From Nitrospirota bacterium (lineage in GTDB: Bacteria > Nitrospirota > Thermodesulfovibrionia > Thermodesulfovibrionales > JdFR-88), in the NCBI GenBank assembly GCA_014874185.1, contig JACWAF010000029.1, positions 1-64,000 on the forward strand: 64,000 bases of DNA. The letters are read 5' to 3'. A program made the translations under genes and the position numbers. Positions 2,456-60,642 of this stretch are shown here, piece by piece (the stretch's first letter is position 1; each line of letters opens with the position of its first letter). The notes beneath the pieces were generated by a model. The model searched no databases and was not told the origin of the DNA. It worked only from the letters and a program-made list of their open reading frames with translations.

Positions 2456-5209
2456 TTAATTCTGCAGCTTCTCTATCCTCACGGCGCAGGCCTTGTATTC
2501 GGGCGTCCCGGTGATCGGGTCCCTGTGCTCCGATGTGAGGACATTCGTGAGGGCGTCCTGGTGATGAAAGGCAAGAAAGACGTTCCCCTCCTGAGAGCGG
2601 GTGGTTACCTTTGTCTTCACCTCGATCTCCCCCCTGCGGGAGAGTACCTTTACCCTCTCCCCGTCCTTTATTTTCAGCCTTTCGGCGTCCGCTGGGCTTA
2701 ATTCCAGAAGCTCTTCCGGGAACAGCTCCATGATCCCCCTGACGCGCCTCGTCATGGAGCCGTTATTGTAATGCTCCCGCCTGCGCCCGGTGATGAGCAC
2801 CAGCGGGAAACTGCTGTCAGCCGCCTCCGCCGGGCCTTTGTGCTCCAGGGCGATAAAGCGCGCGCGGCCCCCCGGCCTCGAGAACATCTCCTGGTACAAT
2901 GTGGCCGTGCCCGGATGGTCTTTGGTGGGGCAGGGCCACTGGATCCCCCCGTCCTCAAGCCGCCTGTAGCTTATGCCCCTGTAAATCGTGGCGAGGCTTG
3001 CTATCTCGTCCATTATTTCAGAGGGGTGGTCATATTTCATCTTATGGCCCATGCGCGAAGACAACTCGCAAAGCACCTGCCATTCGGCCATGCCTGAAAG
3101 CGGCTCTATGGCCTTCCGTATCCTCTGCACACGCCTCTCCCCGTTTGTGAAGGTGCCGTCCTTTTCCGCAAAGCTTGCCCCTGGCAGTATCACGTGGGCG
3201 AAACGGGTGGTCTCAGTGGGGAAGATGTCCTGCACGACCAGAAACTCCAGTGAGCCTAGCGCCTCTCTTACATGGCGAAGGTCGGGGTCCGTCTGCGCGG
3301 GGTCCTCACCCAGGATGAAAAGCCCCTTGAAAGCGCCGTCCTTCGCCTCATCCAGCATCTCGACTGATTTGAGCCCCGGTTTGGCCGGAAGCTTCACGCC
3401 CCATGACTTTTCAAATTTCTCCCGCACGTTTGGGTCGGTTACGGACTGGTAGCCGGTGAATGTGGCGGGCAGCGGCCCCATGTCAGATGCCCCCTGGACG
3501 TTATTTTGCCCCCTCAGGGCCATTATGCCGGTCGCGGGCCTTCCTATCTGGCCGCAGACCAGGGCAAGGTTCGCGATGGCCATGGCGTTTTCGGTGCCGG
3601 TCTGGTGCTCGGTAACCCCGAGGCCGTAGAGTATCATGGCGTTTTGGGCGCCCGCGTAAATGCGCGCGGCCTTGATGAGCTTCTTCGGGGAGACGCCGGT
3701 TATCTTCTCCACCCGGTCAGGCGAATACGCCTCCACCGCCGCCCTCAGTTCTTCGAAACCCTCCGTCCTTTTCCTGATGAAATCCCTGTTGTCCAGGTCC
3801 TCTTTAAGGATGATGTGTATAAGGCCGTTCAGGAGTGCTATATTGGAGCCTGGCCGCAGGTTGAGCCATACCTCCGCATGCCTCACAAGCTCTATCTCGC
3901 GGGGGTCGGCAACGATTATCCGCGCCCCGTTTCTAATGGCCCTGTTCACATGGATGGAGACCACCGGATGCCCTTCGGTGGTGTTCGAGCCGAAGATGAA
4001 CAGCGTATCCGCATCCCCTATCTGGTTGAATGAATTGCTTGCGGCCCCCGCCCCCAGAGAAGTGGCCAGACCGGCCACGGTGGGGGCGTGTCAAACCCTG
4101 GCGCAGTTGTCTACGTTGTTGCTGCCCAGGGCGGCCCTCACCCATTTCGAGATAAGATAATTCTCCTCGTTGGTGCAGCGCGATGATGAAAAGGCGCCGA
4201 CCGCCTCAGGGCCGTATTTTTCCTTTAATTCATTAAAGCGGCTTGCCACGAGGTCCAGCGCCTCATCCCAGGAGGCCTCGCGGAAGCCCTCCCCCTCGCG
4301 GATGAGCGGGGTGGTGAGCCTGTCCGGATGGTGTATGAACTCGTAGCCGAACCGCCCCTTGATGCAGAGGCTGCCCCTGTTCACCGGGGCCTCGTAATCG
4401 GAGGTGACCTTTACCACCCTGCCCCCTTTTACATTTAAATAGAAATTGCAGCCCGTGCCGCAATAGGAGCATGTGGTCCTTATCCTGCGCAGTGAGTGAT
4501 TTCTGCCCTTTCCGATTGACTGCTTCTCGATAAGGGCCCCTGTCGGGCAGGCCGAGACGCACTGCCCGCAAAAAAGGCAGGTTTCGGGCGTAAGCGGCCT
4601 TCCGAAGGCGGTATCGGGCCTGGAGTTGAAACCCCTGCCCGTCATGGCGATTGCGCCTTTCAGCATAAGGTTCTTGCAGATATTGACGCATCTGCCGCAC
4701 AGGATGCACTTGTTCGGGTCGAAGGATATGAAGGGGTTGTCGTCCTTTACCGGAAGGTTCCACCGCTCGCCGTCGTATTTGCCGGGGGTGACTTCATACT
4801 GATATGCCAGCTCCTGAAGAGAGCAGTCCCCGGCCTTCTCGCAGCACATGCAGTCGTCGGGGTGATTGGAGAGGATCAGGGAGAGCATGGTCTTTCTCAG
4901 TTCCGTAAGGTTCGGGCTCTCGGTCGTGATCTCCATCCCGTTCTGGATGGGCGTGGTGCAGGAAGAAAGGGGCCGGTTGATGCCCTTCACCTCAACAAGG
5001 CAAAGCCTGCAACCGCCATAAGCTTCCAGGCGCTCATCGAAGCACAGGGTGGGGATGTAAATCCCCGCTTCCCTGCACGCCTCAAGGACCGTCCTGCCTT
5101 CTTCGCTGATTATTTCCCTGCCGTTTATGACCGCCTTTACCGGTTTTTTCACAATCTGCTCTCCTTCCGCTTGGACCTGACAGGGAAAGGGCCGAATTGC
5201 CCCGGTCAA
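2456..5209 (-). CDS. fdhA: Selenocysteine-containing formate dehydrogenase alpha subunit (FdhA/FdsA-like, with N-terminal 2Fe-2S and 4Fe-4S domains). The ORF track splits it at an in-frame TGA at 4091-4093.
   Basis: The upstream ORF ends in SNNVDNCARV followed by TGA. The downstream ORF continues HAPTVAGL.... This matches the E. coli FdhF selenocysteine motif NNVDCCARV-U-HGPSVAGL. The C-terminal molybdopterin oxidoreductase domains are conserved. The N-terminal start is uncertain. Confidence 0.85.
4062..4078 (-). promoter_or_regulatory. Putative bacterial SECIS hairpin (GUGGCC-GGUCU-GGCCAC) starting 12 nt 3' of the recoded UGA in fdhA
   Basis: Read from the minus-strand mRNA: UGA CAC GCC CCC ACC GUGGCCGGUCUGGCCAC. 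The apical loop GGUCU resembles the E. coli fdhF SECIS loop. Confidence 0.55.
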
Positions 5210-7059: not shown

Positions 7060-7977
7060 ATGGACTTCGAAGAGCTAACCACGGTTCTGGAGCCTGCGCC
7101 GTTTAAGGATTTCGTGGAAACACAGTACATCAGGGGCGTCACGGACAGGGCGCTCACCTATATCGAGGCAGGTTTCCCGATCCACTTCAGGGGTGTTTCG
7201 GGGACGGGCAAGACGACGCTGGCGCTGCATGTTGCCGGCAAGATAGGGAGGCCCGTGGTGATGCTCCACGGTAACGAGGAATCAACGGGCTCAGACCTTG
7301 TGGGCGGAGCGTATGGCTACCGGTTTAAAAAGGTGGTCGACCGCTTTGTCGCCAAGGTGTTCAAGATGGAGGAGGATATGGTCAGGCGATGGGTCGACAG
7401 CCGCCTGACCATTGCCTGCAAACACGGGTTCACGCTCCTGTATGACGAATTCACGCGTTCGAGGCCCGAGGCCAATAACGTCCTGCTGTCGGTCCTCGGG
7501 GAAAAGGTCCTCGACTTCCCGGGCGGACAGGGATCTTCGGAACAGTACCTCAAGGTCAACCCCGATTTCACCGCCATATTCACGAGCAACCCCGAAGAAT
7601 ACGCGGGTGTGTACAGGTCCCAGGACGCGCTCAGGGACAGGATGATAACGATGGACCTCGATCACTTCGACCTTGAGACGGAGGTGGCCATAACCCAGGC
7701 AAAAGCGGGCCTGCCAAAGGACGAGTGCGAGAGGATAGCAAGCGTGGTCAGGGGCTTGCGGGAATCTGGCCAGTGCGAATTTGCCCCCACCGTGCGGGCA
7801 TCCGTAATGATAGCGAAGACGCTGAGAGTGCAGAACCGCTCACCCAAAAAATCGGATGCCCTTTTCGTGCAGATATGCAGGGACATACTGGCCTCGGAGA
7901 CCAGCAGGGTCGGCTCGAAGACAAACCAGGAGAGAGTGAAAAAAACGGTGGCCGGCCTGATCGATACCTATTGCTGA
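7060..7977 (+). CDS. gvpN: Gas vesicle protein GvpN (AAA+ ATPase of the CbbQ/NirQ/MoxR family)
   Basis: Walker A (GVSGTGKTTLA) and Walker B (LLYDEFTRSRPEANN) are present. The length and context are typical of GvpN. Confidence 0.9.
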   Translation: MDFEELTTVLEPAPFKDFVETQYIRGVTDRALTYIEAGFPIHFRGVSGTGKTTLALHVAGKIGRPVVMLHGNEESTGSDLVGGAYGYRFKKVVDRFVAKVFKMEEDMVRRWVDSRLTIACKHGFTLLYDEFTRSRPEANNVLLSVLGEKVLDFPGGQGSSEQYLKVNPDFTAIFTSNPEEYAGVYRSQDALRDRMITMDLDHFDLETEVAITQAKAGLPKDECERIASVVRGLRESGQCEFAPTVRASVMIAKTLRVQNRSPKKSDALFVQICRDILASETSRVGSKTNQERVKKTVAGLIDTYC

Positions 7978-7993
7978 TCGGCCTGGAGGGAAA

Positions 7994-8317
7994 ATGATAA
8001 AGAGCGCACGCGCATTGTCCGGAGGAATAAAGGGCCCGCGGGATATAAAGGGGATTTCAAGGGAGGCGAGGCGGCCGAAAACCCAGACCGCTGTCCCTTA
8101 CGGCACGGAATTCTTCATCCTGGGGAAGTGGAAGGAAAGACTTGAGCTGGAGAATGCCTTTCTGGAGAGGCGCATGGCGGCAAACTGCAAAAAGCTCGAC
8201 GCGATAAAGGAGAAGATCGCAAGGTTTGGGGGAGCGATGCGGGCAGTGGAGGGTCCAAAAGATGAGACAGCGGAGACGAGCGGGATGAAATACAAAAAAA
8301 TGACCCTGGGATACTGA
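7994..8317 (+). CDS. Small hypothetical protein within the gvp operon
   Basis: ORF only. It is tightly spaced between gvpN and the Hsp20 gene. No family recognised. Confidence 0.4.
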   Translation: MIKSARALSGGIKGPRDIKGISREARRPKTQTAVPYGTEFFILGKWKERLELENAFLERRMAANCKKLDAIKEKIARFGGAMRAVEGPKDETAETSGMKYKKMTLGY

Positions 8318-8340
8318 TTCCGAACGGGAAGGAGACCTCG

Positions 8341-8868
8341 ATGGCAAGAAAAGAGAAAAGCAAAGAAGGCATAGATATAGACCTGGGGGTTGTCAAGCTG
8401 AGCGCGGGAGGACTGTTCAAGGGGCTTGAAAAGCTCGTGGACCTCGCGGCCAAGCTCCAGGAAGCGGGCGGACAGATAAGCAAAGAGCAGGAGATAGACC
8501 TCAGCCAACTCAAGAAGGGGATGAAGGCGGTATACGGGGTTTCAATCAGGACAGCCGTGGGCGGCGAGCCGGTGGTGGAGACCTTCGGCAATATCAAAAA
8601 GACGGAGAAAGGGCCGCTTGCGGAGGAGGAAAGGGAGCCCCTGACGGATGTTTTTGACGAAAAGGAGGAAATCCTGGTTCTGGCCGAAATCCCCGGCGTG
8701 AATGAAGAGGGGATAAAGGTCGGGATCGAAGGCGGTCAGATAGTCATATCGGCGGCGGGGACAAACCGGAAATACAGGAAAGAGATAGAAATCCCTTCAG
8801 GCGCAAAGCCGGAAACGATGACCACCAGCTATAGGAACGGAATCCTGGAGATCAGGATTAAAAAGTGA
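8341..8868 (+). CDS. Hsp20/alpha-crystallin domain protein (GvpH-like small heat-shock protein)
   Basis: The C-terminal half is ACD-like (EILVLAEIPGVNEEGIKVGIEGGQIVISAAG...ETMTTSYRNGILEIRI). The N-terminus is charged and lysine-rich. Confidence 0.7.
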   Translation: MARKEKSKEGIDIDLGVVKLSAGGLFKGLEKLVDLAAKLQEAGGQISKEQEIDLSQLKKGMKAVYGVSIRTAVGGEPVVETFGNIKKTEKGPLAEEEREPLTDVFDEKEEILVLAEIPGVNEEGIKVGIEGGQIVISAAGTNRKYRKEIEIPSGAKPETMTTSYRNGILEIRIKK

Positions 8869-9824
8869 ACGCCGTTTGCGGACTCCTCGACCCGCCGCTA
8901 AAGTTGATCCTGTTCGGCGGCAAGGGGGGTGTGGGGAAGACAACTCTTGCTTCAAGCGCCGGGGTTTATCTGGCCGAAAGGGGGAAAAGGACGCTTCTTG
9001 TCTCAACCGACCCGGCTCATTCCCTTTCGGACAGCCTGGGGATCGAGATAGGCAGTGAGACAAGAAATACGGAAATCGAGGGCTTGCATGCCCTGGAGAT
9101 AAATGCCGAAAAAGAGTTTGCGTCCTTTAAGGAACAATACGACAAGGAGCTGAGGAGCATCTTTGACACGGGCAGCTATCTGGATAAGGACGATGTGGAT
9201 TCGATACTTGCATTGCAGATGCCCGGCATTGACGAGGTAATGGGCCTCAAACAGATTATCGAGCTTGTAAGGGAAGGAAAATACGATAAATACGTACTGG
9301 ACACCGCCCCGACCGGGCATGCGCTAAGGCTTCTGCATCTTCCCGAACTCCTGGACCAGTGGATAAAGGTCGTCTCAAAGATGAGATGGAAATACAGATA
9401 CATGGTGGAAAGATTTTCGGGAGGATACAGGCCGGACGCGGTTGATGAGCTTCTTGTCACCATGAAAAAATCGGTCAAGCATATAGGAGACATTCTAAAG
9501 GACCAGAAGGCATGCGAGTTTATCGCGGTCACCATACCTGAAGATATGGCGATCAGGGAGACAGGGAGACTTATGGATTCTCTGAAGAGATATGGGATAA
9601 GGGTGCGGCAATTGATAATCAATAATGTCATCTGTCCTTCAAGCACATGCCCTTTCTGCATGGAAAGAAGAAAGGGACAGGAAAAATACATCAAGTCCGC
9701 AAGAGAGCAGTTCGGCAATCTGAATATCGTTGAGATACCGCTTCAGCAACACGAGGTAAAGGGGATCAGGGATCTTCAGAGGATGACGGGCCTTGCATTC
9801 GCGGATACGTGCCCTGCAACCTGA
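8865..9824 (+). CDS. ArsA/GET3-family anion-transporting ATPase homolog (single domain) embedded in the gvp cluster
   Basis: P-loop (LFGGKGGVGKTTLAS), STDPAHSL and the DTAPTGHALRLL signature are present. There is a C-terminal CPSSTCPFC cysteine motif. The start overlaps the Hsp20 stop. Confidence 0.85.
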   Translation: MNAVCGLLDPPLKLILFGGKGGVGKTTLASSAGVYLAERGKRTLLVSTDPAHSLSDSLGIEIGSETRNTEIEGLHALEINAEKEFASFKEQYDKELRSIFDTGSYLDKDDVDSILALQMPGIDEVMGLKQIIELVREGKYDKYVLDTAPTGHALRLLHLPELLDQWIKVVSKMRWKYRYMVERFSGGYRPDAVDELLVTMKKSVKHIGDILKDQKACEFIAVTIPEDMAIRETGRLMDSLKRYGIRVRQLIINNVICPSSTCPFCMERRKGQEKYIKSAREQFGNLNIVEIPLQQHEVKGIRDLQRMTGLAFADTCPAT

Positions 9825-9836
9825 AAAAGAGGCGGC

Positions 9837-11978
9837 TTGAACATGAACACTCAAGGTGAAGGCATATCGTTGAAGGTGAAGGAGGCGCTGCCGAAGGACG
9901 TGGGCAGGGCCATAGCCAGAATGGACCCTGAGGACATGAAGCGGCTCGGTGCTGAAGTAGGCGACATCATTGAGATCGCCGGGAAAAGGAGAGCGGCGGC
10001 AAAGGTGATGCCCTGCTATCCCGAGGAAAGGAATAAAGGGATTGTGCAGATTGACGGCATAATGCGGGAGAACTCCCAGACGGGGCTGGATGAGAAGGTG
10101 AACATAAGGAGGGCGGCCGCGGTTGCGGCGCGCAAGCTGACCCTTTCGCCCATGACCCGGATCCATCCTCTCCACAAGCTAAAGGACATGAAGTACCTGG
10201 GCTCTCTTCTGGAGGGGATGCCGCTCATCAATGGGGACAGGCTCAGGGTCAGCTTTTTCGGCGCCAGGGCGTACGATTTCAGGGCCACAGGCGTGCTTCC
10301 GCAGGGAATCGTTTTTGTAACCCCGTCGACCACGATAAACCTTGAGGCGGAAGTCCCCGAGAAGCCAAAGCACCTGAAGATATCATACGAGGACATAGGG
10401 GGGCTTCAATCCCAGATCAGAAAGATAAGAGAGATGATAGAGCTGCCTCTGAAGTATCCGCAAATATTTGAAAGGCTGGGGATTGAGCCGCCCAAGGGGG
10501 TCTTTCTTTACGGACCGCCTGGCACCGGAAAGACTCTTATTGCAAGGGCTGTTGCAAACGAGACCGAGGCCTATTTCACCCATATAAGCGGCCCCGAGAT
10601 AATGGGCAAATTCTACGGGGAAAGCGAGGCCCGCCTGAGGAGCATATTTGAAGAGGCCGAAAAAAAAGCCCCCTCCATAATCTTCATCGACGAGATCGAC
10701 GCCATAGCGCCAAAGAGGGAGGAGATGGGCGGGGAGAAACAGGTCGAAAGGAGGGTCGTGGCACAACTCCTTGCCCTTATGGACGGCCTGGAATCGAGGG
10801 GCGACGTGATAGTCATAGCCGCGACTAACCTTCCCAACCTGATAGACCCCGCGCTCAGGCGCCCGGGCAGGTTTGACAGGGAGATCCCAATCGATATCCC
10901 CGACCGGAAAGGGCGGCTTCAGATCCTCAACATCCATACCCGGGGGATGCCTCTGTCAGAGGACGTCAATACGGATAAGATTGCCGAGATCACGCATGGT
11001 TTTGTTGGCGCCGACCTGGAAGCCCTGGCGAGAGAGGCGGCCATGTCGGCCCTCAGAAAAATACTTCCGGAGATCGATTTCCAGATGGAGGAGATCCCCT
11101 ATGAGACCCTGATGCAGCTTCAGGTGACGATGGCCGATTTTCTGGAGGCGATGAAAGAGGTGGAGCCGTCCGCCATAAGAGAAGTCTTCGTCGAGGTGCC
11201 CGATGTAAGGTGGTCTGACGTGGGGGGCCTGGATGATATAAAGCAGGAGTTGCAGGAAGCGATAGAATGGCCCCTGAAATATCCCGAACTGTTCGGAAGG
11301 GCCGGCACGAGGCCTCCGAAGGGGATACTCCTTCACGGGGCCCCAGGGACCGGGAAGACCCTCATAGCCAAGGCCCTTGCCAACGAGAGCGGCGTAAATT
11401 TCATATCGGTCAAAGGCCCGAGCCTGATCTCAAAATTCGTCGGAGAGAGCGAAAAGGCCCTCAGGGACATATTCAAGAAGGCCAAGCAGGCCTCTCCTAC
11501 GATCCTGTTCTTTGACGAGATAGACAGCCTCGTCCCGAAACGGGACGGAGGAGGAGAAGCCCACGTGACGGAGAGAGTGGTGAGCCAGTTTCTGACCGAA
11601 ATGGACGGCATCGAGGAGCTGAGGGGCGTGGTGGTCCTGGCGGCCACGAACAGGCCGGACTTGATTGACCCGGCCCTGTTGAGAGGCGGCAGGTTTGATG
11701 TCCAGATGATTCTTCCTCTTCCCGATGAACGGACGCGGCTTAAGATCTTTGAAATCCATACAAGGGGCAAGCCCCTGGCTGGCGATGTCGATCTGCCCGA
11801 ACTGGCAAGACGGACTGAAGGCAGGGCGGGTTCAGATATTGAATTGATCTGCCGCAAGGCTTCCCTTCTTTCCATAAGGGAATACATCGGCCAGGAAATG
11901 AAGGCCGGGTTAGAGATTTCAAAGCGGCATTTTGAGGAAGCCCTGACGCTTCTCGAAAAGCGGGTTGCGGGGTATTAG
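9837..11978 (+). CDS. CDC48/VCP-like AAA+ ATPase with two AAA domains (N-domain, D1 and D2)
   Basis: The N-terminal double-psi-barrel-like region is present. There are two Walker A motifs (GPPGTGKT and GAPGTGKT), two DEID Walker B motifs and SRH motifs. Confidence 0.9.
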
Positions 11979-11981
11979 CGC

Positions 11982-13040
11982 ATGGAAGGTAAATATGCAT
12001 TCGGCGTCATTGAAGCACCTGAGGCAAAACTTCCCCTGCCGGAAGCGGTCTACACTGTCCCATACCGGGATATTTCGGCCGTAGTAATGGATTCAGCCAT
12101 GGTCGATTTTGCAGCCATGACCAAGGAGGCCGGGGCAAGATATCTTCTCAGGCATCAGCAGGTGCTGGAGAAGGCAATGGTTTCGCACCCAGTGATACCC
12201 CTGAAGCTCGGCACTTATGTTTCCAGTCATGCAGAGGTGATCGACGTCTTGTCATTTGGATACCGTGATTTCAAGGAGACCTTCCGCGAAATAGAAGGCA
12301 AAGTGGAAATCAATGTCGCCGCGACATGGTCTGACAAGGATTCCATTATCAGGCAGACGGCGGAGGAGAGTGAAGAGGTACGGGAGTATAAAAAGAAGCT
12401 CTTGTCGAAACCCGGGGGCGTAAACATGGAAGACCAGATGAACGCCGGACGCCTGGTCAGGAAAGCCATGGAAAAGAGGAACAGGAAAACGGCTTCCGGA
12501 ATAACAAGCGCCCTTTCGGAGATTGCGCTGGCACAGAGGACGCATGATCTCATGGACGACGGCATGATCCTGAATGCGGCCTTTCTGGTTGAACACAGGA
12601 AAATAAAAAGATTTGATTACGTCCTGAATAGATTGGACGAGGCCTATCATGGGCGAATAAATTTCAGGTGCATAGGCCCTTTACCTACATACAGCTTCTA
12701 CACCGCCGAGATAAAAAAGGTTTGTTCCGGCGAACTGGACAAGGCTAGGAAAATGCTCGGGCTCCGGGATTACCCGGTATGCAAGGACGAAATAGAAAAG
12801 GCATACCGGCAGCGCGCCCGCATGTGTCATCCCGATGTGATCGGGCATTGCATTGAAACGGGGGAGAAACGGGCCAGGAAAAAAGGACAGCCCTGTGCCA
12901 GTCCGGAAGTTGAAAGCACGGAAGAGTTCACCGAGATAAACAGGGCTTACAAGCTGCTTATGGACTGCAGCGCATCCGAAGCCTGTCGCAGAGAGGATGG
13001 AAGCGTTCTCATCGTCAGAGTAATGAGGATAAGGGGATAA
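11982..13040 (+). CDS. GvpL/GvpF-family gas vesicle protein fused to a C-terminal J-domain (DnaJ-like, HPD motif)
   Basis: The N-terminus is GvpF/L-like (YAFGVIEA...YRDISAVV...GPLPTYSFY). The C-terminus reads EIEKAYRQRARMCHPDV...EEFTEINRAYKLL, which are J-domain helices II and III with an HPD motif. Confidence 0.75.
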   Translation: MEGKYAFGVIEAPEAKLPLPEAVYTVPYRDISAVVMDSAMVDFAAMTKEAGARYLLRHQQVLEKAMVSHPVIPLKLGTYVSSHAEVIDVLSFGYRDFKETFREIEGKVEINVAATWSDKDSIIRQTAEESEEVREYKKKLLSKPGGVNMEDQMNAGRLVRKAMEKRNRKTASGITSALSEIALAQRTHDLMDDGMILNAAFLVEHRKIKRFDYVLNRLDEAYHGRINFRCIGPLPTYSFYTAEIKKVCSGELDKARKMLGLRDYPVCKDEIEKAYRQRARMCHPDVIGHCIETGEKRARKKGQPCASPEVESTEEFTEINRAYKLLMDCSASEACRREDGSVLIVRVMRIRG

Positions 13041-13041
13041 G

Positions 13042-13818
13042 GTGGAAAAATCGGGCAAATACATTTACTGCGTGATAAGGACAGAGCAGGAAAGGAATTT
13101 CGGCAATATCGGAATGGGCGGGGGCATGGGCGGGGGAGACAACGAAGTGACAACGGTCGGCCTTGGCGATCTGAGCATGGTTGTGAGCAATTCGCCTGTG
13201 AGCAAGTATCCGGTAAGCAGGGAAAATCTTCTCGTCCACCAGAAGGTGGTCGAGGAGGTGATGAAAGAGTTTACCGTCCTGCCGGTTCGGTTTTGCACGA
13301 TCGCTCCCGCCGCCGGCAAGATCCGGAACCTCATCGAAAGAAGAGGGAAGGAATTCAAGACCCTGCTCCGTCAGATGGAATTCAAAATAGAATTGGGAGT
13401 AAAGGCGATCTGGAGAGATATGGACAGGGTATTCAGGGAGATCGTGGAAGAGGACAAGCAGATTGCTGCTCTCAGGCGGAAAATCTCCGGAGACGGCAGA
13501 ACCAGCGTCCAGACAAAAATGGAGCTGGGCAGGATGGTCGAGCGTGCTCTGGCGGAAAAAAAGGAAACGGAATCCGGTGCAATCATGTCTACCTTGAAGA
13601 GAGCGGCATTCGACTGGAAGCCCGGCCGGACCTCCGATGACAAGATGATCATGAACGCCTCTTTTCTGGTTGACAAGGCCAGGGAGAAGGAGTTCGACAA
13701 CATCGTGGAGGATTTCAGCGAGAACTACAAGGAAAGAATAAAGTTCATGTATGCCGGCCCCCTGCCCCCATATAATTTTGTGAGCGTGGTAATCCATCCC
13801 GAGGAATGGGAACTATAG
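13042..13818 (+). CDS. GvpF/GvpL-family gas vesicle protein (second copy)
   Basis: YIYCVIRT...GDLSMVVSNSPV...AGPLPPYNFVSV. The architecture is typical of GvpF/L. Confidence 0.8.
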   Translation: MEKSGKYIYCVIRTEQERNFGNIGMGGGMGGGDNEVTTVGLGDLSMVVSNSPVSKYPVSRENLLVHQKVVEEVMKEFTVLPVRFCTIAPAAGKIRNLIERRGKEFKTLLRQMEFKIELGVKAIWRDMDRVFREIVEEDKQIAALRRKISGDGRTSVQTKMELGRMVERALAEKKETESGAIMSTLKRAAFDWKPGRTSDDKMIMNASFLVDKAREKEFDNIVEDFSENYKERIKFMYAGPLPPYNFVSVVIHPEEWEL

Positions 13819-30550: not shown

Positions 30551-31566
30551 TGGATAAGAAGATAAGAGAGCAAGCGGCGGGGATAAGAAGGCTTTGGAGC
30601 GCGTTCTGGCAGGCGAGGCCGGTGCTTACGGCGGTCAATTTCAATATCTTCGAGCATACTAAAAACAGCGCTTCGGCGCAGGACGTGGCCAGAAAAATAA
30701 AAGCAGACCCCAGGGCGGCGGAGATACTGCTGGATGCGCTTGCCGGGCTTGGCCTCCTTAAGAAATCCAGGGGCGCTTACCGGAACTCGAAAGAGGCGGA
30801 GCTTTTTCTTGTGAAGGACTCCCCATATTACCAAGGCGCCATAGCAAGGCATGCCGATAACCTGTGGAACAGCTGGTCGCACCTGGACGAGGTGCTCCGC
30901 ACCGGAAAACCAGCGCCGCGGGACGGGGACCGCTTCGATCTTGAGGCCTTCATAATGGGTATGCACAACCTGGCGATACTGAAGGCAGGGGACATTATAA
31001 AGGCCATCGGCATGAAAGGCGTCCATAGCGCGCTGGACCTGGGCGGGGGCCCCGGCACGTACTCTATGGAGATGGCCAGGGCCGGGGTGGAGAGCGTTAC
31101 GATCTTCGACCAGCCGGACGTGATAAAAATCGCTCAAAAGAACACCAGAAGGCATGGCATTCGGGCTGTGAAGTTCATGAAGGGCAATTTCAATAAAGAC
31201 GGTTTCGGCGCTGGCTACGACCTCGTCTTCATGAGCAACATACTGCATTCCAACTCTTACGGGGAATGCCAAAGCTTGCTGAAGAGGGCGAAGGCCGCCC
31301 TGAACCCAGGCGGGCGCGCCGTGATAAACGAGTTCTATCTGAAAAACGGCCGCACGGAACCCCTTGGGGGCGCGCTATTTTCCATAAACATGCTTGTCAA
31401 CACCCAGGGCGGGCGCGCCTATACCGGGGGGGAGCTTAAGGGCTTTCTGAGGAAGGCCGGGTTCCGGGACATTAAAGCAAAAATCCTCTTCGGCGATACG
31501 ATTGTGGTCATGGGGCGTGCCTCCACCCCGAAAAGCCCTCGGCTTTTCGGGGACCCCGGTGCCTGA
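30550..31566 (+). CDS. Class I SAM-dependent O-methyltransferase (Methyltransf_2/COMT-like)
   Basis: N-terminal winged-helix dimerisation region. SAM motif ALDLGGGPGTYSMEMAR. The ATGA overlap with rmuC indicates translational coupling. Confidence 0.75.
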   Translation: MDKKIREQAAGIRRLWSAFWQARPVLTAVNFNIFEHTKNSASAQDVARKIKADPRAAEILLDALAGLGLLKKSRGAYRNSKEAELFLVKDSPYYQGAIARHADNLWNSWSHLDEVLRTGKPAPRDGDRFDLEAFIMGMHNLAILKAGDIIKAIGMKGVHSALDLGGGPGTYSMEMARAGVESVTIFDQPDVIKIAQKNTRRHGIRAVKFMKGNFNKDGFGAGYDLVFMSNILHSNSYGECQSLLKRAKAALNPGGRAVINEFYLKNGRTEPLGGALFSINMLVNTQGGRAYTGGELKGFLRKAGFRDIKAKILFGDTIVVMGRASTPKSPRLFGDPGA

Positions 31567-31846
31567 AATAAAAATTCCGTTTCAGAAAACAGCGGCCGGG
31601 ATACGTTTCAAGGTGAAGGTGGAGCCCCGCTCCTCAAAGCGATGCATAGCCGGTGTGCACGGCGATGCCCTGAAGGTGAAGCTCACCTCCCCGCCCGTCG
31701 AGGGAAAGGCCAACGAGGACCTGATAGAGTTTTTAGCCGATGTGCTTGGCGTGAGAAAATCCAGCATCAAAATCGTCCAGGGGCAAAGCTCGAAGCAGAA
31801 GGTTGTGGAAGTGGACGGGATTAGCGATCTGAAAATGGAAGGCTGA
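31559..31846 (+). CDS. DUF167 (YggU) family protein
   Basis: IRFKVKVEPRSSKRCIAGVHGDALKVKLTSPPVEGKANEDLIEFLADVLGV. The start is approximate. Confidence 0.65.
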   Translation: MPEIKIPFQKTAAGIRFKVKVEPRSSKRCIAGVHGDALKVKLTSPPVEGKANEDLIEFLADVLGVRKSSIKIVQGQSSKQKVVEVDGISDLKMEG

Positions 31847-31939
31847 GGTCCGCTCAAGGACTTTTCTCCAGGATCTGCGCGCCTGGATAAAAATGGACCG
31901 CTCTCATGGGTTTGCCTGAGAGCGGTCCATTATGGCTGG

Positions 31940-32308
31940 TTAAGCCTTCGTTGTCTTAACGGTTCCGGGCGCCAGCATGCCTGCCGTCTGACCCAGAACC
32001 CATCCTGCGGCTGCCCCGCCGGCTATGAACATCAGGGCCGAAACCAGAACCCCCAACAGCATGAAAACCGCAACGAGCACCCTGGGCAGAAGCCCGGCCG
32101 CAACCGGGAATCCCGTAAGGAACCCCGCCAGGTTCAGCCCTATGACCCCGCCTATAAACGAGCCCGGCAAAATGCCGAATACCGCCATCAGGACCAATCC
32201 CGCACCCGCACCTATCAATGCCGTTTTAGCTGCCAGAGTCTGTCTCATCTTCTTTTCCCCCTTTTTTCTTTCTTGCCCTTCAATATGCATATCGCGTGCC
32301 ATTTGCAA
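31940..32308 (-). CDS. Small Gly-rich membrane protein (likely start at MRQTLAAK, about 32248)
   Basis: Three glycine-zipper-rich transmembrane helices. Confidence 0.5.
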   Translation of the reverse strand: MQMARDMHIEGQERKKGEKKMRQTLAAKTALIGAGAGLVLMAVFGILPGSFIGGVIGLNLAGFLTGFPVAAGLLPRVLVAVFMLLGVLVSALMFIAGGAAAGWVLGQTAGMLAPGTVKTTKA

Positions 32309-32434
32309 CCTGCTGTTTTTTCTGGTTTCCCGGAAACAGGCCCTTGCAGGCCTGCAAAAAGGGTTTCAGAAATGCAAAGGGCCGCCAAAATTGGACGCTG
32401 TGATAGAATTTATCTGAGGCAGGTTGTTGCCCGC

Positions 32435-34549
32435 ATGAAGAAGACAGACGCCAGGAAAAATATCCCCCTCATAATAAGTATTATTTACGCCGGCGCGGGA
32501 CTTGTCTGGGTCCTTATCGCCAACGCCCTTTTGTACGAATATATAAAAGGAGTGCGGGTATTCGCGGAATCCGAGGTCCTGAAGGGCTGGATATTCGTAC
32601 TGCTCACATCGGTCCTGATATATTTTCTGGCCCGCAGATATATCAGGACTTTCCAGAAATCCGAACGGGTGCTGAGGGAAAGCGAAGAGCGGTTCCAGAC
32701 ACTGGTCGAACGCACATCCTCGGCGATCTTCATCTACAGACAGAATATGCTTTTTGCAAACAGCACGATGGAGGCGCTGACCGGCTACAGCCGGGAAGAG
32801 CTGACCCGGATGAGCTTCGGCGACCTTATCGATCCCGAATTCCGGGCGGAAGTCATGCAAAAATGCGAGGCCTTCCTGAAGGGCTTTCAGAAGCCTGAGA
32901 AGTGCGAGTTCAAGATAATCCGGAAGGACGGGCAGCTCCGGTGGATAGATTTCACCACAAGCCTCATAAATTATTACGGCGCCCCGGCCGGGCTTGGCAC
33001 CGCCTTCGACATAACCGGGCAGAAAGAGGCATATGAGGCCCTCAGGAAGAGCGAAGAGAGATACAGGCTGGTCGTGCAGAGCGTGAGCGACTACGAGATA
33101 TTCGTGCTGGACACGGAGGGGTGCATCGTTGCCTGGAACCTCGGCGCGGAAAAGGGCAAGGGCTACGTCCTTGAAGAGGTGATAGGGGAACCGCATTCGA
33201 TCTTCTTCACGCAAAAGGACATGGAGGCCGGCCTTCCCCAGAAAGAGCTTGACATCGCACGCCGCGACGGGCACTTCGAAGACGAGGGGTGGCGGGTGAG
33301 GAAGGACGGCTCCCTGTTCTGGGCAAACGTGGTGACCACGGCCATGAGGGACGAAAAAGGCGAACTGAAAGGCTTTTCCAAAGTGATCAGGGACATCACC
33401 CGGCGCAAGGCGGCCGAGGACCTCCTCCGCGAAAGCGAAGAGCGCTACAGGATAATCCTGGAGACCGCCTCCGATGCCGTCATAACGATCGACGAAGACA
33501 GCAGGGCCGTTCTTGTCAACAGGGCAGTGGAAAAGATATTCGGGTACAAGGAGGAAGAGGTCCTGGGCAGGGTTATAACCATTCTGATGCCGGAGCGCTA
33601 CAAGGCGGCCCACCTTGCGGCGATAAAAAGGTATATTGAAACGGGAAAGGCCGTGGTCAATTGGGAATACCGCGAGATCGAAGGGCTGCGGAAAGATGGC
33701 ACGGAGGTCCCCCTTGAAATCTCTTACGGGGTCTTCAGAAAGGACGGGAAGTTCTTCTTTACGGGGATAGCGCGTGACCGCACGGAGCGGCAGCAGGCCG
33801 AGAAGGAGAAAAAGTACAAGGACATGCTGGAGCGCTTTAATGAAGAGCTTGAGACCGTAGTGGCCGAACGGACGCTCAGCCTGATGGCCCTGAGGCTTGC
33901 CGACCAGGTGCGCGGCCCCGCCTCGATAATAGGGCTTGCGGGCAGGAAACTGGAGCAGGTGAAAGGGATCTCGCCGGACCTGAGGGAAAACATCTCCATG
34001 ATAATGGAGGAGGGGCAGAAGCTGGAGGCCATGGTGAGGGACTTCCAGTCCCTTCTGAAGGCCAGGCAGCCGGTCTTCACCTACCAGGATATAAACGGAA
34101 TAATAAGGGGCGTGCTGGAGGTGGTAAAGAGGGAAGCCGAGGCAAAGAGGGTGGAGATAACAGACCGCCTGCCCGGCATCCCCCTCAGGATAAACGCCCA
34201 GCGCGAGCTGCTGAGGATGGCCGTCTTCAGTCTGCTGAGGAATGCCGTAGAGGCAACCCCCGAAGGGGGCAGGGTGATTATCTCGGCCTATGCGGAGAAA
34301 GGGAACGTTGTCTTTTCGGTCTCGGACGGCGGCCCCGGCATGCCAAAGGAGGCCGTTGAGAAGCTCTTCGACCCGTTTTACAGCGCGCGGGTCTATCGGT
34401 TCGGCATGGGCCTGCCGCTTATAAAACAGATCATAGCCGAGCACCTTGGCCAGATAGAGGTGGACAGCGCTCCCGGAGCGGGCACCACTTTCAAAATAAT
34501 CCTTCCGGTCAGGTGGATGCAGAAGGCGCTGAGGGCGGGTTCCGTTTGA
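32435..34549 (+). CDS. Multi-PAS sensor histidine kinase
   Basis: N-terminal transmembrane segments. Several PAS/PAC repeats (…GWRVRKDGSLFWANVV..; ..RKDGTEVPLEIS..). C-terminal HATPase_c (VSDGGPGMPKE...GMGLPLIKQI...GAGTTFKIILP). Confidence 0.85.
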   Translation: MKKTDARKNIPLIISIIYAGAGLVWVLIANALLYEYIKGVRVFAESEVLKGWIFVLLTSVLIYFLARRYIRTFQKSERVLRESEERFQTLVERTSSAIFIYRQNMLFANSTMEALTGYSREELTRMSFGDLIDPEFRAEVMQKCEAFLKGFQKPEKCEFKIIRKDGQLRWIDFTTSLINYYGAPAGLGTAFDITGQKEAYEALRKSEERYRLVVQSVSDYEIFVLDTEGCIVAWNLGAEKGKGYVLEEVIGEPHSIFFTQKDMEAGLPQKELDIARRDGHFEDEGWRVRKDGSLFWANVVTTAMRDEKGELKGFSKVIRDITRRKAAEDLLRESEERYRIILETASDAVITIDEDSRAVLVNRAVEKIFGYKEEEVLGRVITILMPERYKAAHLAAIKRYIETGKAVVNWEYREIEGLRKDGTEVPLEISYGVFRKDGKFFFTGIARDRTERQQAEKEKKYKDMLERFNEELETVVAERTLSLMALRLADQVRGPASIIGLAGRKLEQVKGISPDLRENISMIMEEGQKLEAMVRDFQSLLKARQPVFTYQDINGIIRGVLEVVKREAEAKRVEITDRLPGIPLRINAQRELLRMAVFSLLRNAVEATPEGGRVIISAYAEKGNVVFSVSDGGPGMPKEAVEKLFDPFYSARVYRFGMGLPLIKQIIAEHLGQIEVDSAPGAGTTFKIILPVRWMQKALRAGSV

Positions 34550-47316: not shown

Positions 47317-49245
47317 ATGTTTAAAAAAGACGGCCCCGAAAAAGGGGCCGGGATTATCAAAAACCGGCTCTTTCAGCTGGTCCTGCTGGCGCAATTTGTC
47401 CTGGTGATATCCTTTCTGGGCTACAGGGACTGGCGGAACTCGGACGTGGAGTGCGTAAGGTGCCACTCGGACAAGGCAAAACTCCAGAGGCTGGGCTATC
47501 CGGATTTTTACGTCACCCCCCAACTGGTGGAGAAAGAATCAAAGCACAAGAACCTCTCCTGCCTCGATTGCCATCTTGGAAACGGAAGGGCCGCTGACAG
47601 GCACGAGGCCCATAAGGGGATGCTCAGGGCCATGTTCATAAACGAAGGGGGACAGGTCGTGAACAGGCTTCAGGTATGGCGGGGGCCGCTTGTGCCCAGG
47701 GACAAAAGCATAAGGGCGCTTCTGCCCAGGGACAATTACGATGTCAGGAACCTTCTCTGGCAGGACAGAAACCCCAAAACGTTCAATTTCGACCCTGATA
47801 TCGCCAAAAAGACCTGCGCCAAGCCCTCCTGCCATCCCGAGGAGCTTAAACAGTTCCGCAACAGCCACATGGGGGCCAACTTCCGCCAGCGCACGATGAA
47901 GACCTGGCTTACACCTTACGGCCCGCATAATTGCGGCCCATCCTTTGCCGACCTCCAACCCACCGGCCACCTGGACGGCGCGGGGTTCGACTTCAAGAAC
48001 ACGGCAAGGATACAGAAAGAGGTCAACGTCAAATTCACCCGGCAGCAGGCCATTGCCAAGCAGAAATTCTGCAACGTATGCCACGCGGGCTGCCTGGACT
48101 GCCACTATGCCCCGGATGCCAGAAAAGGCGTGCACAACTTCGAGAAGGTCCCGCTGGCCCGGTCATGCTCGGGCTATGGCCGGGGCACAAGCATCTGCCA
48201 TCCCGGCGCGATGCAGAGCCGCCGCGGCGAGACCTACATAGGCGGGAGCTATTCCATTCCTGAGGGGATGACCCCCGACGTGCACTACACGAAGGGGCTG
48301 AAATGCGTGGACTGCCACATCACCGGCCCCAAGGGGATGGGCGACATCGTGCGCAACGCCGTCTGCCAGGACTGCCATATCGAGGCCGAGGACAACCTGG
48401 CAAAAAGCGTCCATAAGGACCTGGACTGCGCCACTTGCCATATCTCCGAGCTTCGAGGTTATCAGCTCACCATGTGGGGGAAGGGCTATGTGGAGGAAAA
48501 GCCAAACCCGTTCAATAAATTCTCGCTCTATTACGGCATTCAGAAGCCGCCCATAATCATAAAAGACCAGAAGGGGCGATGGATGCCCGTGAAGATATGG
48601 CCCCACAGCCTGGAGGACTTCGCCAGGGTAGTGCCGCCCTCGCCCCATATAATGTTCAGGTGGCCTGACGGCCAGACCAGGGACGCCTATTACATAGTGG
48701 GCACCATCACGAACGCCCCGGCCGGAAACAACTACCTGCTCTGGCTGGAGATAGAGCAGGCCGCCCACCCTTACGGGAAGGCGCGCCCCTGCGCCTCCTG
48801 CCACAACGGCGGACGGGGGCAGGTGGCCACCTCCACCTGGCAGTTCATGGACGACCAGGGTTCTTTGCCTTTTAATGGCACGCATAAGGTAGTTGCCGAC
48901 AAGAACGGCATCCGCATAGAGGGGCTAAGGAATACCACGCCCATAAAGGTGCTGGAAGGAAGCTCCATTGCGGACTTCGCCTCGTGGGTTTATTTTAGAA
49001 ACGCCTGGAAGATGCCGGGGGACTTCGCCATAACGGAAGACCCGGTAAAGTATAAAAAAGAGCTGGCCCTCACGATGAAGGCCGAAAGAGAGATCAAGGA
49101 AATCGAAAGGCATTCGGCAGGCTTCGACAAGAAGAAGCGGATAGAGTTCAAGCGGCTCAAGGAAGCCGTGTTTCACAACGGCGAGGCCGCCCAAGGCCTG
49201 ATAAAGGCCTTCGAAGCCGGGAAACAGGCCTCTCCTGCCTATTGA
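47317..49245 (+). CDS. Multiheme c-type cytochrome (8 CXXCH motifs plus one CX4CH), N-terminal signal anchor
   Basis: CVRCH, CLDCH, CAKPSCH, CNVCH, CLDCH, CVDCH, CQDCH, CATCH and CASCH. The N-terminus is hydrophobic. Confidence 0.8.
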   Translation: MFKKDGPEKGAGIIKNRLFQLVLLAQFVLVISFLGYRDWRNSDVECVRCHSDKAKLQRLGYPDFYVTPQLVEKESKHKNLSCLDCHLGNGRAADRHEAHKGMLRAMFINEGGQVVNRLQVWRGPLVPRDKSIRALLPRDNYDVRNLLWQDRNPKTFNFDPDIAKKTCAKPSCHPEELKQFRNSHMGANFRQRTMKTWLTPYGPHNCGPSFADLQPTGHLDGAGFDFKNTARIQKEVNVKFTRQQAIAKQKFCNVCHAGCLDCHYAPDARKGVHNFEKVPLARSCSGYGRGTSICHPGAMQSRRGETYIGGSYSIPEGMTPDVHYTKGLKCVDCHITGPKGMGDIVRNAVCQDCHIEAEDNLAKSVHKDLDCATCHISELRGYQLTMWGKGYVEEKPNPFNKFSLYYGIQKPPIIIKDQKGRWMPVKIWPHSLEDFARVVPPSPHIMFRWPDGQTRDAYYIVGTITNAPAGNNYLLWLEIEQAAHPYGKARPCASCHNGGRGQVATSTWQFMDDQGSLPFNGTHKVVADKNGIRIEGLRNTTPIKVLEGSSIADFASWVYFRNAWKMPGDFAITEDPVKYKKELALTMKAEREIKEIERHSAGFDKKKRIEFKRLKEAVFHNGEAAQGLIKAFEAGKQASPAY

Positions 49246-59099: not shown

Positions 59100-59345
59100 A
59101 AAGCCGTACTCCTCCCTTTGGTGTTTATCGATATATTGTAATGGAAATGACGGGTGAAAGGCAAGGGGAGGGTAATTGGTAGTGATAAACTTGAAATTTA
59201 ATAAAGATTATGAATAGGACTAACAATTAATAATATAATAAATGTTTTATTCCGAAGCTGAAATTCCTTTGCTCTTCGCGGACTTCTTGTAATAAATAAG
59301 TATTTCGGTTATTCTAGAGAAAACAACTTCTCTAGCGGAGGATCT

Positions 59346-59669
59346 ATGTTCAGCATTACAGAAACAGCGGCTGACAAGGCCAAAGAACTCCTGAAAGCCG
59401 AGGGAAAGGAAGATTGCGGCCTCAGGGTTTACATGATGCAAAGCGGCGGTTGAGGGTGCGGCCCTTCCTATGGAATAGGAATAGAAGAAAAAGGCTCGTC
59501 GGGGGACAATATAATAGAAAAGAACGGGCTTAAGGTTTACCTGGACACTAACGCCTCCGAGAAACTGAAGGACATGGAGATGGATTACGTCGAGGACACG
59601 GGCGGCTCCGGTTTCGTGCTGAAGGGCGGGCAACCCTCATCCAGCGACTGCGGAAGCTGCGGCCACTGA
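59346..59669 (+). CDS. HesB/IscA-like small selenoprotein candidate with an in-frame TGA at 59451-59453. Not present in the ORF track.
   Basis: Reading through the TGA from a GGAGG RBS and ATG gives [50 protein letters not shown]...[18 protein letters not shown]. The IscA-like architecture is kept, with Sec at the first conserved Cys position and a C-terminal CGSCG. A hairpin UUCCUAU-GGA-AUAGGAA starts 12 nt after the UGA. Confidence 0.55.
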
Positions 59670-59670
59670 G

Positions 59671-60642
59671 ATGTTTCCCATCGAGAGACCGCGCAGGCTT
59701 AGAAAAAACGAAACGATCCGGAGGATGCTGAGGGAGACCACCCTCAGCCCTTCGGATTTTATTTATCCCCTCTTCGTAACCGAGGGCAGGGGCGTCCGCA
59801 AGGAGGTCTCCTCGATGCCCGGCTGCTACCAGGAATCGATTGACGAGGCCGTAAAGAACGTAAAAGAAACCTGGTCACTGGGCGTGCCCGCGATAATCCT
59901 CTTCGGCATCCCAGAGCACAAGGACGACCTGGGCTCCGGCGCCTATGACGAAAACGGCATAATCCAGCGGGCCATAAAGGAAATAAAGAGTGCCGTCCCT
60001 GACATCTATCTGATAACCGATGTCTGCCTCTGCGAGTACACAAGCCACGGCCACTGCGGCGTGATAGAGGGCGGAGAGGTGCAGAACGACCGGACGGTGG
60101 AACTCCTTGTAAAAGAGTCCCTCTCGCATGCCAGGGCCGGTGCGGACATGGTGGCCCCTTCCGATATGATGGACGGCAGGGTGGGCGCTATAAGGGACGC
60201 CCTGGACGACGAAGGTTTTTCGAATATCCCGGTGATGAGCTACGCGGCAAAGTACGCATCGGGTTTTTACGGCCCGTTCCGCGAGGCCGCGGAATCCACC
60301 CCGCAGTTCGGCGACAGGCGCTCCTACCAGATGGACCCCCCTAACAGGCGCGAGGCCCTCAGGGAGGTGGCCCTGGACATAGAGGAAGGCGCGGACATCG
60401 TTATGGTGAAGCCCGCGCTTGCCTACCTCGATGTAATCTCAGACGTGCGCTCCGCCTTCGACGTGCCCGTTGCGGCCTACAACGTAAGCGGCGAGTACAG
60501 TCTTGTGAAGGCCGCGGGCCGCCTGGGCTGGATAGACGAGGAGCGTGTCATGATGGAATCCCTAATCTCCATAAAACGCGCCGGTGCGGACCTCATCCTT
60601 ACCTACTTCGCCAAAGACGCAGCCAAAGTCCTGAACAGATAG
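59671..60642 (+). CDS. hemB: Porphobilinogen synthase (delta-aminolevulinic acid dehydratase)
   Basis: RPRRLR...[14 protein letters not shown]...active-site lysines...VKPALAYLD. Confidence 0.95.

Follow-up and report, generated by a model that had tools for sequence, protein, structure and literature searches.

In the 64,000-nt stretch analysed here (the window; Nitrospirota bacterium contig JACWAF010000029.1, assembly GCA_014874185.1, positions 1-64,000), a gene for an IscA/HesB-type protein lies at 59346-59669, directly upstream of hemB, and its reading frame is crossed by a single TGA at codon 36. This gene very probably encodes selenocysteine (Sec), and it is highly likely that the whole interval is one gene for a 107-residue protein of the A-type carrier family, which handles iron-sulfur (Fe-S) clusters, with UGA36 decoded as Sec. 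TGA was found at the homologous codon in 14 other distinct genes, or 15 with that of the window: 12 distinct full-length genes with the motif U-G-C (U being Sec; the window gene is among them), one partial gene, and two of a U-S-T-S type. The gene is genuine and is a systematically mis-annotated selenoprotein.

Results

A reading frame with a single internal TGA

An earlier reading of the DNA by itself (the original prediction) had placed a GGAGG ribosome-binding site and an ATG at 59346 ahead of a 107-codon frame broken only by TGA at codon 36, followed by a 7-bp hairpin, UUCCUAU-GGA-AUAGGAA, starting at the 12th nt past the UGA. Each of these elements is present in the sequence. The ATG opens a frame of 107 sense codons in which the TGA of codon 36 (59451-59453) is the sole in-frame stop, and the terminator of the gene is itself TGA (59667-59669). 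The features of the locus are as follows.

59310..59315, + strand: putative -10-like box TATTCT in an AT-rich (30% GC) intergenic region, with a possible promoter role
59337..59341, + strand: Shine-Dalgarno sequence GGAGG, 4 nt ahead of the ATG, read directly
59346..59669, + strand: IscA/HesB-type gene, 107 residues, predicted Sec36, from translation, profiles and 14 related genes
59451..59453, + strand: UGA, predicted selenocysteine codon 36, aligned to the first cluster-ligand Cys of A-type carriers
59457..59459, + strand: Cys38, forming the U-G-C motif, unchanged in the 12 U-G-C type genes
59465..59481, + strand: candidate selenocysteine insertion sequence (SECIS) hairpin, from position and sequence conservation
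59649..59660, + strand: C-terminal pair C102-G-S-C105 (C-x-x-C), aligned to the C-G-C ligand pair of IscA
59671..60642, + strand: hemB (porphobilinogen synthase/ALAD), PF00490, E = 1.5e-156

GGAGG stands 4-11 nt before the ATG in all 14 Sec loci inspected (the window and 13 relatives), and a TATTCT/TATGCT/TATCCT-like box could be seen by eye about 30 nt upstream in most of them. A scan for the sigma-70 consensus upstream of the selenoprotein gene found no full promoter on the + strand. The list of open reading frames (ORFs) offers over this region only an antisense ORF of 128 aa (59247-59633, - strand); the original prediction had dismissed it as implausible, and it has no Pfam match.

Constraint on both sides of the TGA

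The 12 U-G-C genes share a mean pairwise nucleotide identity of 76% (range 67-90%). Their differences per site at codon positions 1, 2 and 3 are 0.13, 0.10 and 0.51 over codons 2-35, and 0.20, 0.20 and 0.48 over codons 48-94. In all 12 the TGA is the sole in-frame stop; the other two frames hold 0-8 stops. This substitution pattern therefore indicates purifying selection on the protein that is equal upstream and downstream of the TGA, which excludes a pseudogene and termination at codon 36. The original prediction had proposed conservation beyond the TGA as a check, and it was found both at the protein level and at synonymous sites; the loss of conservation downstream that would have spoken against a selenoprotein was not seen, nor was either of the two other outcomes that the prediction had named as refuting. 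TGA is also the commonest ordinary stop in the window, where it closes 16 of the 35 open frames that are 300 codons or longer, and it terminates the window gene and three of its orthologues. TGA has thus not been reassigned. On these comparative data a pseudogene, a stop at the UGA and codon reassignment were all rejected.

Sec and Cys forms of the gene

Three Cys homologues of full length (GGCGCGPSY) came out of an initial protein search, along with three C-terminal fragments of 64-70 residues, from Nitrospirota metagenome-assembled genomes. The contigs of the fragments carry a 35-codon ORF, an in-frame TGA, the fragment and then ALAD; in the divergent locus L003 the ORF has 34 codons and the protein reads IAGGG-U-STSYGLDL. 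Pattern scans of genome and metagenome collections extended this to at least about 80 loci, nearly all from Nitrospirota. Among the matches listed, the codon at the aligned position is TGA in L004-L007, L062, L018 and L032 and TGC or TGT in the rest, a ratio of Sec to Cys forms that is not meaningful, since TGA forms cannot be matched by one of the two scan patterns, which includes the Cys codon. A profile search gave 2,574 full-length Cys homologues, often named 'iron-sulfur cluster assembly accessory protein', with identity to the window protein at 60% or below throughout. A profile limited to the residues after the TGA found nine more fragments (43-65 residues), labelled 'hypothetical protein' or truncated 'IscA'; seven of the nine were new, and on their contigs an in-frame TGA at codon 36 is again followed by ALAD. 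The Sec-form genes are drawn from NCBI, JGI, ENA and Logan assemblies.

Dozens of hemB-linked orthologues have TGC or TGT at the position of codon 36, so that, for example, GGCGCGPSY mirrors GGUGCGPSY. Homologues carry either Cys or TGA there, the pattern that the original prediction had looked for.

Two observations concern the Nitrospira-type relatives. One of them (L041, 3001-3150) has a frameshift some 32 codons in (..IFIHGSRLLRPELRHGSG*), either as a pseudogene or through an indel error of a long-read assembly, and does not belong to the Sec forms. The Nitrospira-type Cys homologues at L030-L081 (P0001-P0003) have 120-130 residues; their first ligand site is occupied by C-G-C or C-C, and a long stretch rich in Gly and Cys extends the C-terminus (..SCGCG..GGCGSGGCGCS). 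This gives 7-8 Cys per protein, which is unusual for A-type carriers.

Public annotation of the gene

Where the loci of this clade have been gene-called (L001, L002, L084-L092), the gene appears as a 35-residue ORF and a fragment of 43-70 residues with variable, artificial starts; in the annotations of L086 and L088 the fragment alone is called. These pieces are labelled 'hypothetical protein' or 'Fe-S cluster assembly iron-binding protein IscA', and among the gene-called contigs of the clade that were examined no source annotates a selenoprotein.

Protein family and ligand residues

For profile and PDB scoring, U in the window protein was read as C. The protein matches PF01521 (Fe-S_biosyn; 3.1e-13, 50.3 bits, cutoff 26.3), and the 71 residues after the TGA pass this model by themselves with 29.8 bits. 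It also passes TIGR00049 (iron-sulfur cluster assembly accessory protein, A-type carrier) with 65.8 bits against a curated cutoff of 58.8, a model on which a U-S-T-S relative scores 81.7 bits, and it falls under the equivalog cutoffs of IscA, SufA and ErpA. The PF01521 and TIGR00049 matches uphold the IscA-like identity that had been predicted, and with it the profile similarity to IscA/HesB on which that identity depended. Sequence matches in the PDB were HI1723 (2APN, 3.9e-13), Aq_1857 (1NWB), E. coli IscA (1S98, 1R94) and T. elongatus IscA (1X0G).

The HMMER alignment puts residue 36 on the conserved first Cys (GGC-S-G..Y) and C102 and C105 on the C-terminal C-G-C. As the original prediction held, the TGA aligns with the first cluster-ligating Cys, in HI1723, Aq_1857 and E. 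coli IscA; a separate alignment to E. coli IscA places it likewise. The protein ends in ..SDCGSCGH, whose C102 and C105 do not vary. Each of the three ligand positions of an A-type carrier is filled, by Sec36, Cys102 and Cys105, but the C-terminal pair is C-x-x-C and not C-G-C; the CGSCG that the original prediction set against the IscA CGCG aligns with that ligand pair and differs from it in motif. All 12 U-G-C genes keep Cys38; the corresponding Cys forms read C-G-C or C-C, and the U-S-T-S subclade has no Cys38 equivalent.

A candidate SECIS element

The hairpin at 59465-59481 consists of a 7-bp stem (UUCCUAU/AUAGGAA) and the loop GGA, 17 nt in all, and follows the UGA after an 11-nt spacer. 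Its first loop G is at nt +19, the same loop offset as in the SECIS of the fdhA gene in the window. It stands at a constant offset in all U-G-C loci, whereas Cys-form loci have no hairpin at that offset or a weaker one (best -3.1 vs -4.1 to -4.7 kcal/mol).

Five species whose proteins are 66-73% identical to that of the window have identical codons 40-47 (CCT TCC TAT GGA ATA GGA ATA GAA), whereas most other conserved residues in the same species use 2-4 synonymous codons; a run of eight identical codons was reached in 0 of 200,000 shuffles. In the 12-gene set a single codon is kept in 5 of the 44 invariant degenerate columns, namely codons 40, 41, 44, 45 and 46, and all five lie inside the hairpin, for which the hypergeometric chance, with 7 hairpin columns, is 21/1,086,008 or about 2e-5. 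Third-position divergence over codons 37-47 is 0.165, compared with about 0.5 in the flanks. The closest relative of the window, L084, differs only apically (UAU GGA to UAC GGG), leaving a 6-bp stem and a G-rich loop. Judged by its position and by this constraint on its sequence, rather than by stability or covariation, the hairpin is probably a SECIS.

The 7 nt 3' of the hairpin (UAGAAGA, 59482-59488) are conserved in 11 of the 12 genes, and the near tandem repeat AUAGGA-AUAGAA offers an alternative 3' partner for the 5' strand of the hairpin. Three Cys forms (L011, L023, L025) have, about 12-28 nt past the Cys codon and at the U-S-T-S-type offset, a weak hairpin CUAUGGCAUGGACAUAG (-3.1 kcal/mol). 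Such hairpins could be remnants or precursors of a SECIS; in D. hafniense, a HesB-like gene of Cys form has been reported to retain a remnant SECIS (PMC1794560, Fig. 4).

Probable selenocysteine use in the organism

The window contains a second gene with an in-frame TGA.

2456..5209, - strand: fdhA (NAD-type formate dehydrogenase alpha), Sec codon 4091-4093, from a TGA scan, domains and motif

Its product has 2Fe-2S, 4Fe-4S, Molybdop_Fe4S4, Molybdopterin and Molydop_binding domains. The in-frame TGA, at the motif CARV-U-HAPT, falls within the Molybdopterin domain and splits it, and the ORF list breaks the gene into pieces of 372 aa and 540 aa. The SECIS, GUGGCC-GGUCU-GGCCAC, lies inside a longer helix and is strong (z = -3.8); against Rfam SECIS_3 it remains below threshold (26.7 bits, threshold 63, E = 2.7e-4). 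The motif, the split domain and the strong SECIS bear out the earlier claim that this genome uses Sec in fdhA. We infer from fdhA that the organism decodes UGA as Sec and has the machinery to do so. Other frames considered for fdhA were rejected: 31451-34549 is a PAS/histidine kinase, and 8865-9824 and 9837-11978 are an ArsA and a CDC48-type AAA ATPase of a gas-vesicle cluster.

Linkage to hemB

In nearly every Nitrospirota locus, whether of Sec or Cys form, the carrier gene is followed directly by hemB, and this holds for all 14 of the other genes with TGA at the homologous codon. The Sec and Cys genes are therefore orthologous by position, and the window gene is a Sec/Cys variant of a conserved housekeeping gene. 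In the window hemB starts 1 nt past the stop of the selenoprotein gene, and because of this 1-nt gap the two are probably co-transcribed and translationally coupled. Upstream of the selenoprotein gene, on the opposite strand, are rpmE, a DUF1385 gene and prfA. A CHRD-domain gene and radC recur downstream of carrier-hemB loci, also on the opposite strand.

In a neighbour-joining (NJ) tree of HemB, built without bootstrap, the 11 members of the U-G-C Sec lineage form a monophyletic group in which no Cys form is nested, and the U-S-T-S pair falls elsewhere, as sister to a Cys form. By parsimony, two gains of Sec from Cys score about the same as a single ancestral Sec lost two or three times, and NJ trees without bootstrap cannot separate the two histories.

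Other features of the window

An apparent gas-vesicle gene cluster occupies about 7060-13818 on the + strand.

7060-7977, + strand: AAA_5 (GvpN-like) gene
8865-9824, + strand: ArsA-type ATPase
9837-11978, + strand: CDC48-type double-AAA ATPase
11982-13040, + strand: GvpL/GvpF with a DnaJ domain
13042-13818, + strand: second GvpL/GvpF

A 642-aa ORF at 47317-49245 (+ strand) has Cytochrome_C7-type multihaem repeats (E = 3.9e-8).

Discussion

Proposed decoding and function

The gene has its own Shine-Dalgarno sequence and probably its own promoter, and its place ahead of hemB suggests that the two would be transcribed together. At UGA36 the 17-nt hairpin 11 nt downstream, with its G-containing loop, may recruit SelB-GTP-Sec-tRNA(Sec), and Sec would then be inserted at this codon, in a SelB-dependent manner, in place of termination. 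The predicted product, by alignment, has Sec36 at the first ligand position, Cys38, and C102-x-x-C105 for the C-G-C pair. By homology it would bind and hand on an Fe-S cluster as a dimer, with the selenolate among the ligands; the cluster would be held through Sec36 and C102/C105, and Cys38 might be a fourth ligand or a redox partner. We lean, with modest confidence, towards such an Fe-S carrier function with a Sec ligand, by analogy with the A-type carriers. It would place Sec, by family assignment, at an Fe-S ligand position of an otherwise bona fide A-type carrier.

Evidence against, and alternative explanations

Several observations weigh against the reading of the gene as a Sec-encoding A-type carrier. 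The isolated hairpin helix is weak (-4.7 kcal/mol), and its region folds no better than shuffled sequence (z = +0.25 and -0.9). RNAalifold gives a 6-bp consensus stem with no compensatory pair, in a hairpin that is nearly invariant, and the Rfam SECIS families do not match the hairpin even at E <= 10. The U-G-C helix is not shared by the U-S-T-S subclade, whose two members have a different and ambiguous one (UGGUC-UUGACCU-GGCCG, with an 11-nt spacer and a G at +19) that rests on two sequences with one-sided changes. No gene for tRNA-Sec, selA, selB or selD lies in the 64-kb window, where ARAGORN finds only a tRNA-Lys, which is also the only match to Rfam at gathering thresholds. The two models for selenoproteins of this kind are not reached: NF038090 (IscA_HesB_Se) gives 48 bits against a cutoff of 85, and TIGR01911 (HesB_rel_seleno) 34.4 bits against 66.35. 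As regards function, that of HesB-like selenoproteins in general is unknown (PMC11097638).

The weakness of the hairpin, its lack of covariation and of an Rfam match, and the want of Sec machinery genes inside the window would also suit passage of UGA36 without Sec, whether by near-cognate read-through (Trp/Cys), by Cys-tRNA(Sec) or by reassignment of UGA. We consider this very improbable. TGA is the commonest ordinary stop of this DNA and ends the window gene and several orthologues; UGA36 sits exactly at a Cys ligand position, where orthologues have Cys; the synonymous sites just downstream are frozen at the canonical SECIS distance; and the fdhA of the window has a classic Sec context. It is more improbable still that translation ends at UGA36, leaving a peptide of 35 residues and perhaps a C-terminal fragment that is initiated on its own. 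Annotation pipelines do call just these two pieces in the relatives, but the called fragment starts differ and are not conserved, the stretch from the TGA to the fragment start is the most conserved part of the gene in protein and nucleotide sequence, neither piece has a complete PF01521 domain, and the first ligand residue would be lost. That a Cys codon turned into TGA in a decaying iscA-like gene, or through a sequencing error, is scarcely credible. A single transversion would suffice to convert TGC or TGT, and the relative L041 looks frameshifted; yet the TGA is fixed in all 15 genes, from independent projects and assemblers and in two subclades, and the frame shows purifying selection on both sides with no further stops or frameshifts.

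The remaining alternative accepts a real selenoprotein and assigns it a thiol/selenol redox role, in which U36-G-C38 would cycle via a selenenylsulfide, a chemistry that has been suggested for the majority of uncharacterised selenoproteins of bacteria. This we think unlikely, but it is a serious alternative as to function. The U-G-C motif is invariant in the 12 genes of that type, with C-G-C or C-C in the Cys orthologues, and uncharacterised selenoproteins mostly have redox motifs of the UxxC/CxxU type, with UxC in a Prx-like selenoprotein (PMC13188914, PMC1088965). The function of HesB-like proteins is, moreover, not established, and an M. maripaludis mutant had no nitrogen-fixation defect (PMC11097638). 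Against this, the U-S-T-S subclade keeps Sec without an adjacent Cys, so the second Cys is not needed for Sec retention, and the A-type fold and its three ligand positions are kept, with TIGR00049 passed. A redox role and the Fe-S carrier role are not mutually exclusive.

A possible link to HemB

The HemB encoded in the window has a C-L-C-x7-C metal-site motif (C-x-C-x7-C). In human ALAD the triad C122/C124/C132 is reported to hold a [4Fe-4S] cluster (PMC7725820), and the motif of the window HemB is the equivalent of that triad. Because the adjacency of carrier and hemB is conserved, the gap is 1 nt and HemB has this Cys triad, the carrier might be a dedicated HemB maturation factor that gives an Fe-S cluster to a human-ALAD-like C-x-C-x7-C site; and because Sec forms occur in two lineages nested among Cys forms, Sec might have replaced Cys in situ as the donor's first cluster ligand, in one or two lineages of Nitrospirota. 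This combined proposal, drawn by analogy, is speculative and quite improbable. If true, the carrier would hold its Fe-S cluster with a selenolate ligand and would have changed transfer kinetics or resistance to oxidation. The linkage to hemB is in any case a lead that ties Fe-S delivery to tetrapyrrole synthesis in bacteria.

Consequences for annotation

Mis-splitting of the gene makes an entire lineage within Nitrospirota seem to lack a conserved hemB-linked Fe-S carrier and to be one selenoprotein short. TIGR01911 and NF038090 would not rescue it, and a new model or seed is therefore warranted. The natural Sec/Cys orthologue pairs at one fixed locus also form a clean system for the role of selenium in HesB-like proteins.

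Comparison with known systems

Among A-type carriers (TIGR00049; IscA/SufA/ErpA), the window protein aligns end to end with the ErpA-like HI1723. It differs in having Sec as first ligand and an extra Cys two residues on, and in its C-terminal C-x-x-C pair, where A-type carriers have C-G-C.

The minimal SECIS of E. coli fdhF, in work by Huttenhofer and colleagues in 1996 and Liu and colleagues in 1998, is reported to be a 17-nt upper stem-loop 11 nt past the UGA with G23/U24 in its loop. The window hairpin likewise has an 11-nt spacer and 17 nt, with GG at 22-23 from the U of the UGA; its loop is GGA (3 nt) rather than GGUC, it has no bulged U, and its stem is A/U-rich and weak. Bacterial SECIS-like stem-loops have a G in a small apical loop and lie immediately downstream of the UGA (PMC1088965).

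The closest known systems are the HesB-like selenoproteins, a family reportedly described by Kryukov and Gladyshev in 2004. It had 11 bacterial members in 2006 (Zhang et al., PMC1794560), and a 2016 census counted 90 HesB-like proteins in 86 organisms, which made it the sixth most frequent bacterial selenoprotein family (PMC5029168). The member in M. maripaludis has been verified by 75Se, and the function of the family is unclear (PMC11097638). A 2026 review places the family under TIGR01911, with the motif UxGP (PMC13188914, Table 1). The original prediction had called the family recognised but rare; it is well recognised (PMC1794560, PMC5029168, PMC13188914), and its sixth place in the census does not fit rarity (PMC5029168).

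We scored eight of the 2006 reference sequences, taken from the supplement of PMC1794560, on NCBIfam. C. perfringens was the only one of the eight above the TIGR01911 cutoff; D. vulgaris and S. fumaroxidans pass NF038090 with about 114 bits each; D. hafniense passes TIGR00049 only, as the window protein does; and four of the eight fall short of all of them. The family of the literature is thus broader than the curated models, so that failing TIGR01911 and NF038090 does not exclude membership in the broad sense. To NF038090, the D. vulgaris and S. fumaroxidans type, the window protein aligns over its full length (protein 1-104, model 1-101), and the two share the position of the Sec and a cluster of Cys at the C-terminus.

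With the HesB-like selenoproteins the window protein shares the PF01521 HesB/IscA domain, a length of about 95-107 residues and one Sec, which takes the place of the conserved first Cys behind a Gly-rich turn (GG-U). As in that family, Cys homologues exist in other organisms, a short G-loop hairpin follows just past the UGA, and Sec-fdhA is present too, HesB-like selenoproteins being found in anaerobes that also have Sec-FdhA. Cys-rich tails occur in several members, such as ..GGCSSCSSCH in C. perfringens and ..CGGSCGGSCG in D. acetoxidans. No report of a hemB-linked or Nitrospirota HesB-like selenoprotein was found in the literature searched. The window protein is 22-34% identical to 10 published bacterial members, and the hemB-linked Nitrospirota proteins form a clade of their own (NJ, about 105 aa, no bootstrap). 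Compared with U-x-G-P, the window motif U-G-C-G-P is one residue longer, and the second subclade has U-S-T-S; Cys orthologues with C-C-G-P fit C-x-G-P. The gene is not a new system but belongs to the known HesB-like/IscA kind of selenoprotein, as a hemB-linked member from Nitrospirota that is closest to the A-type carriers.

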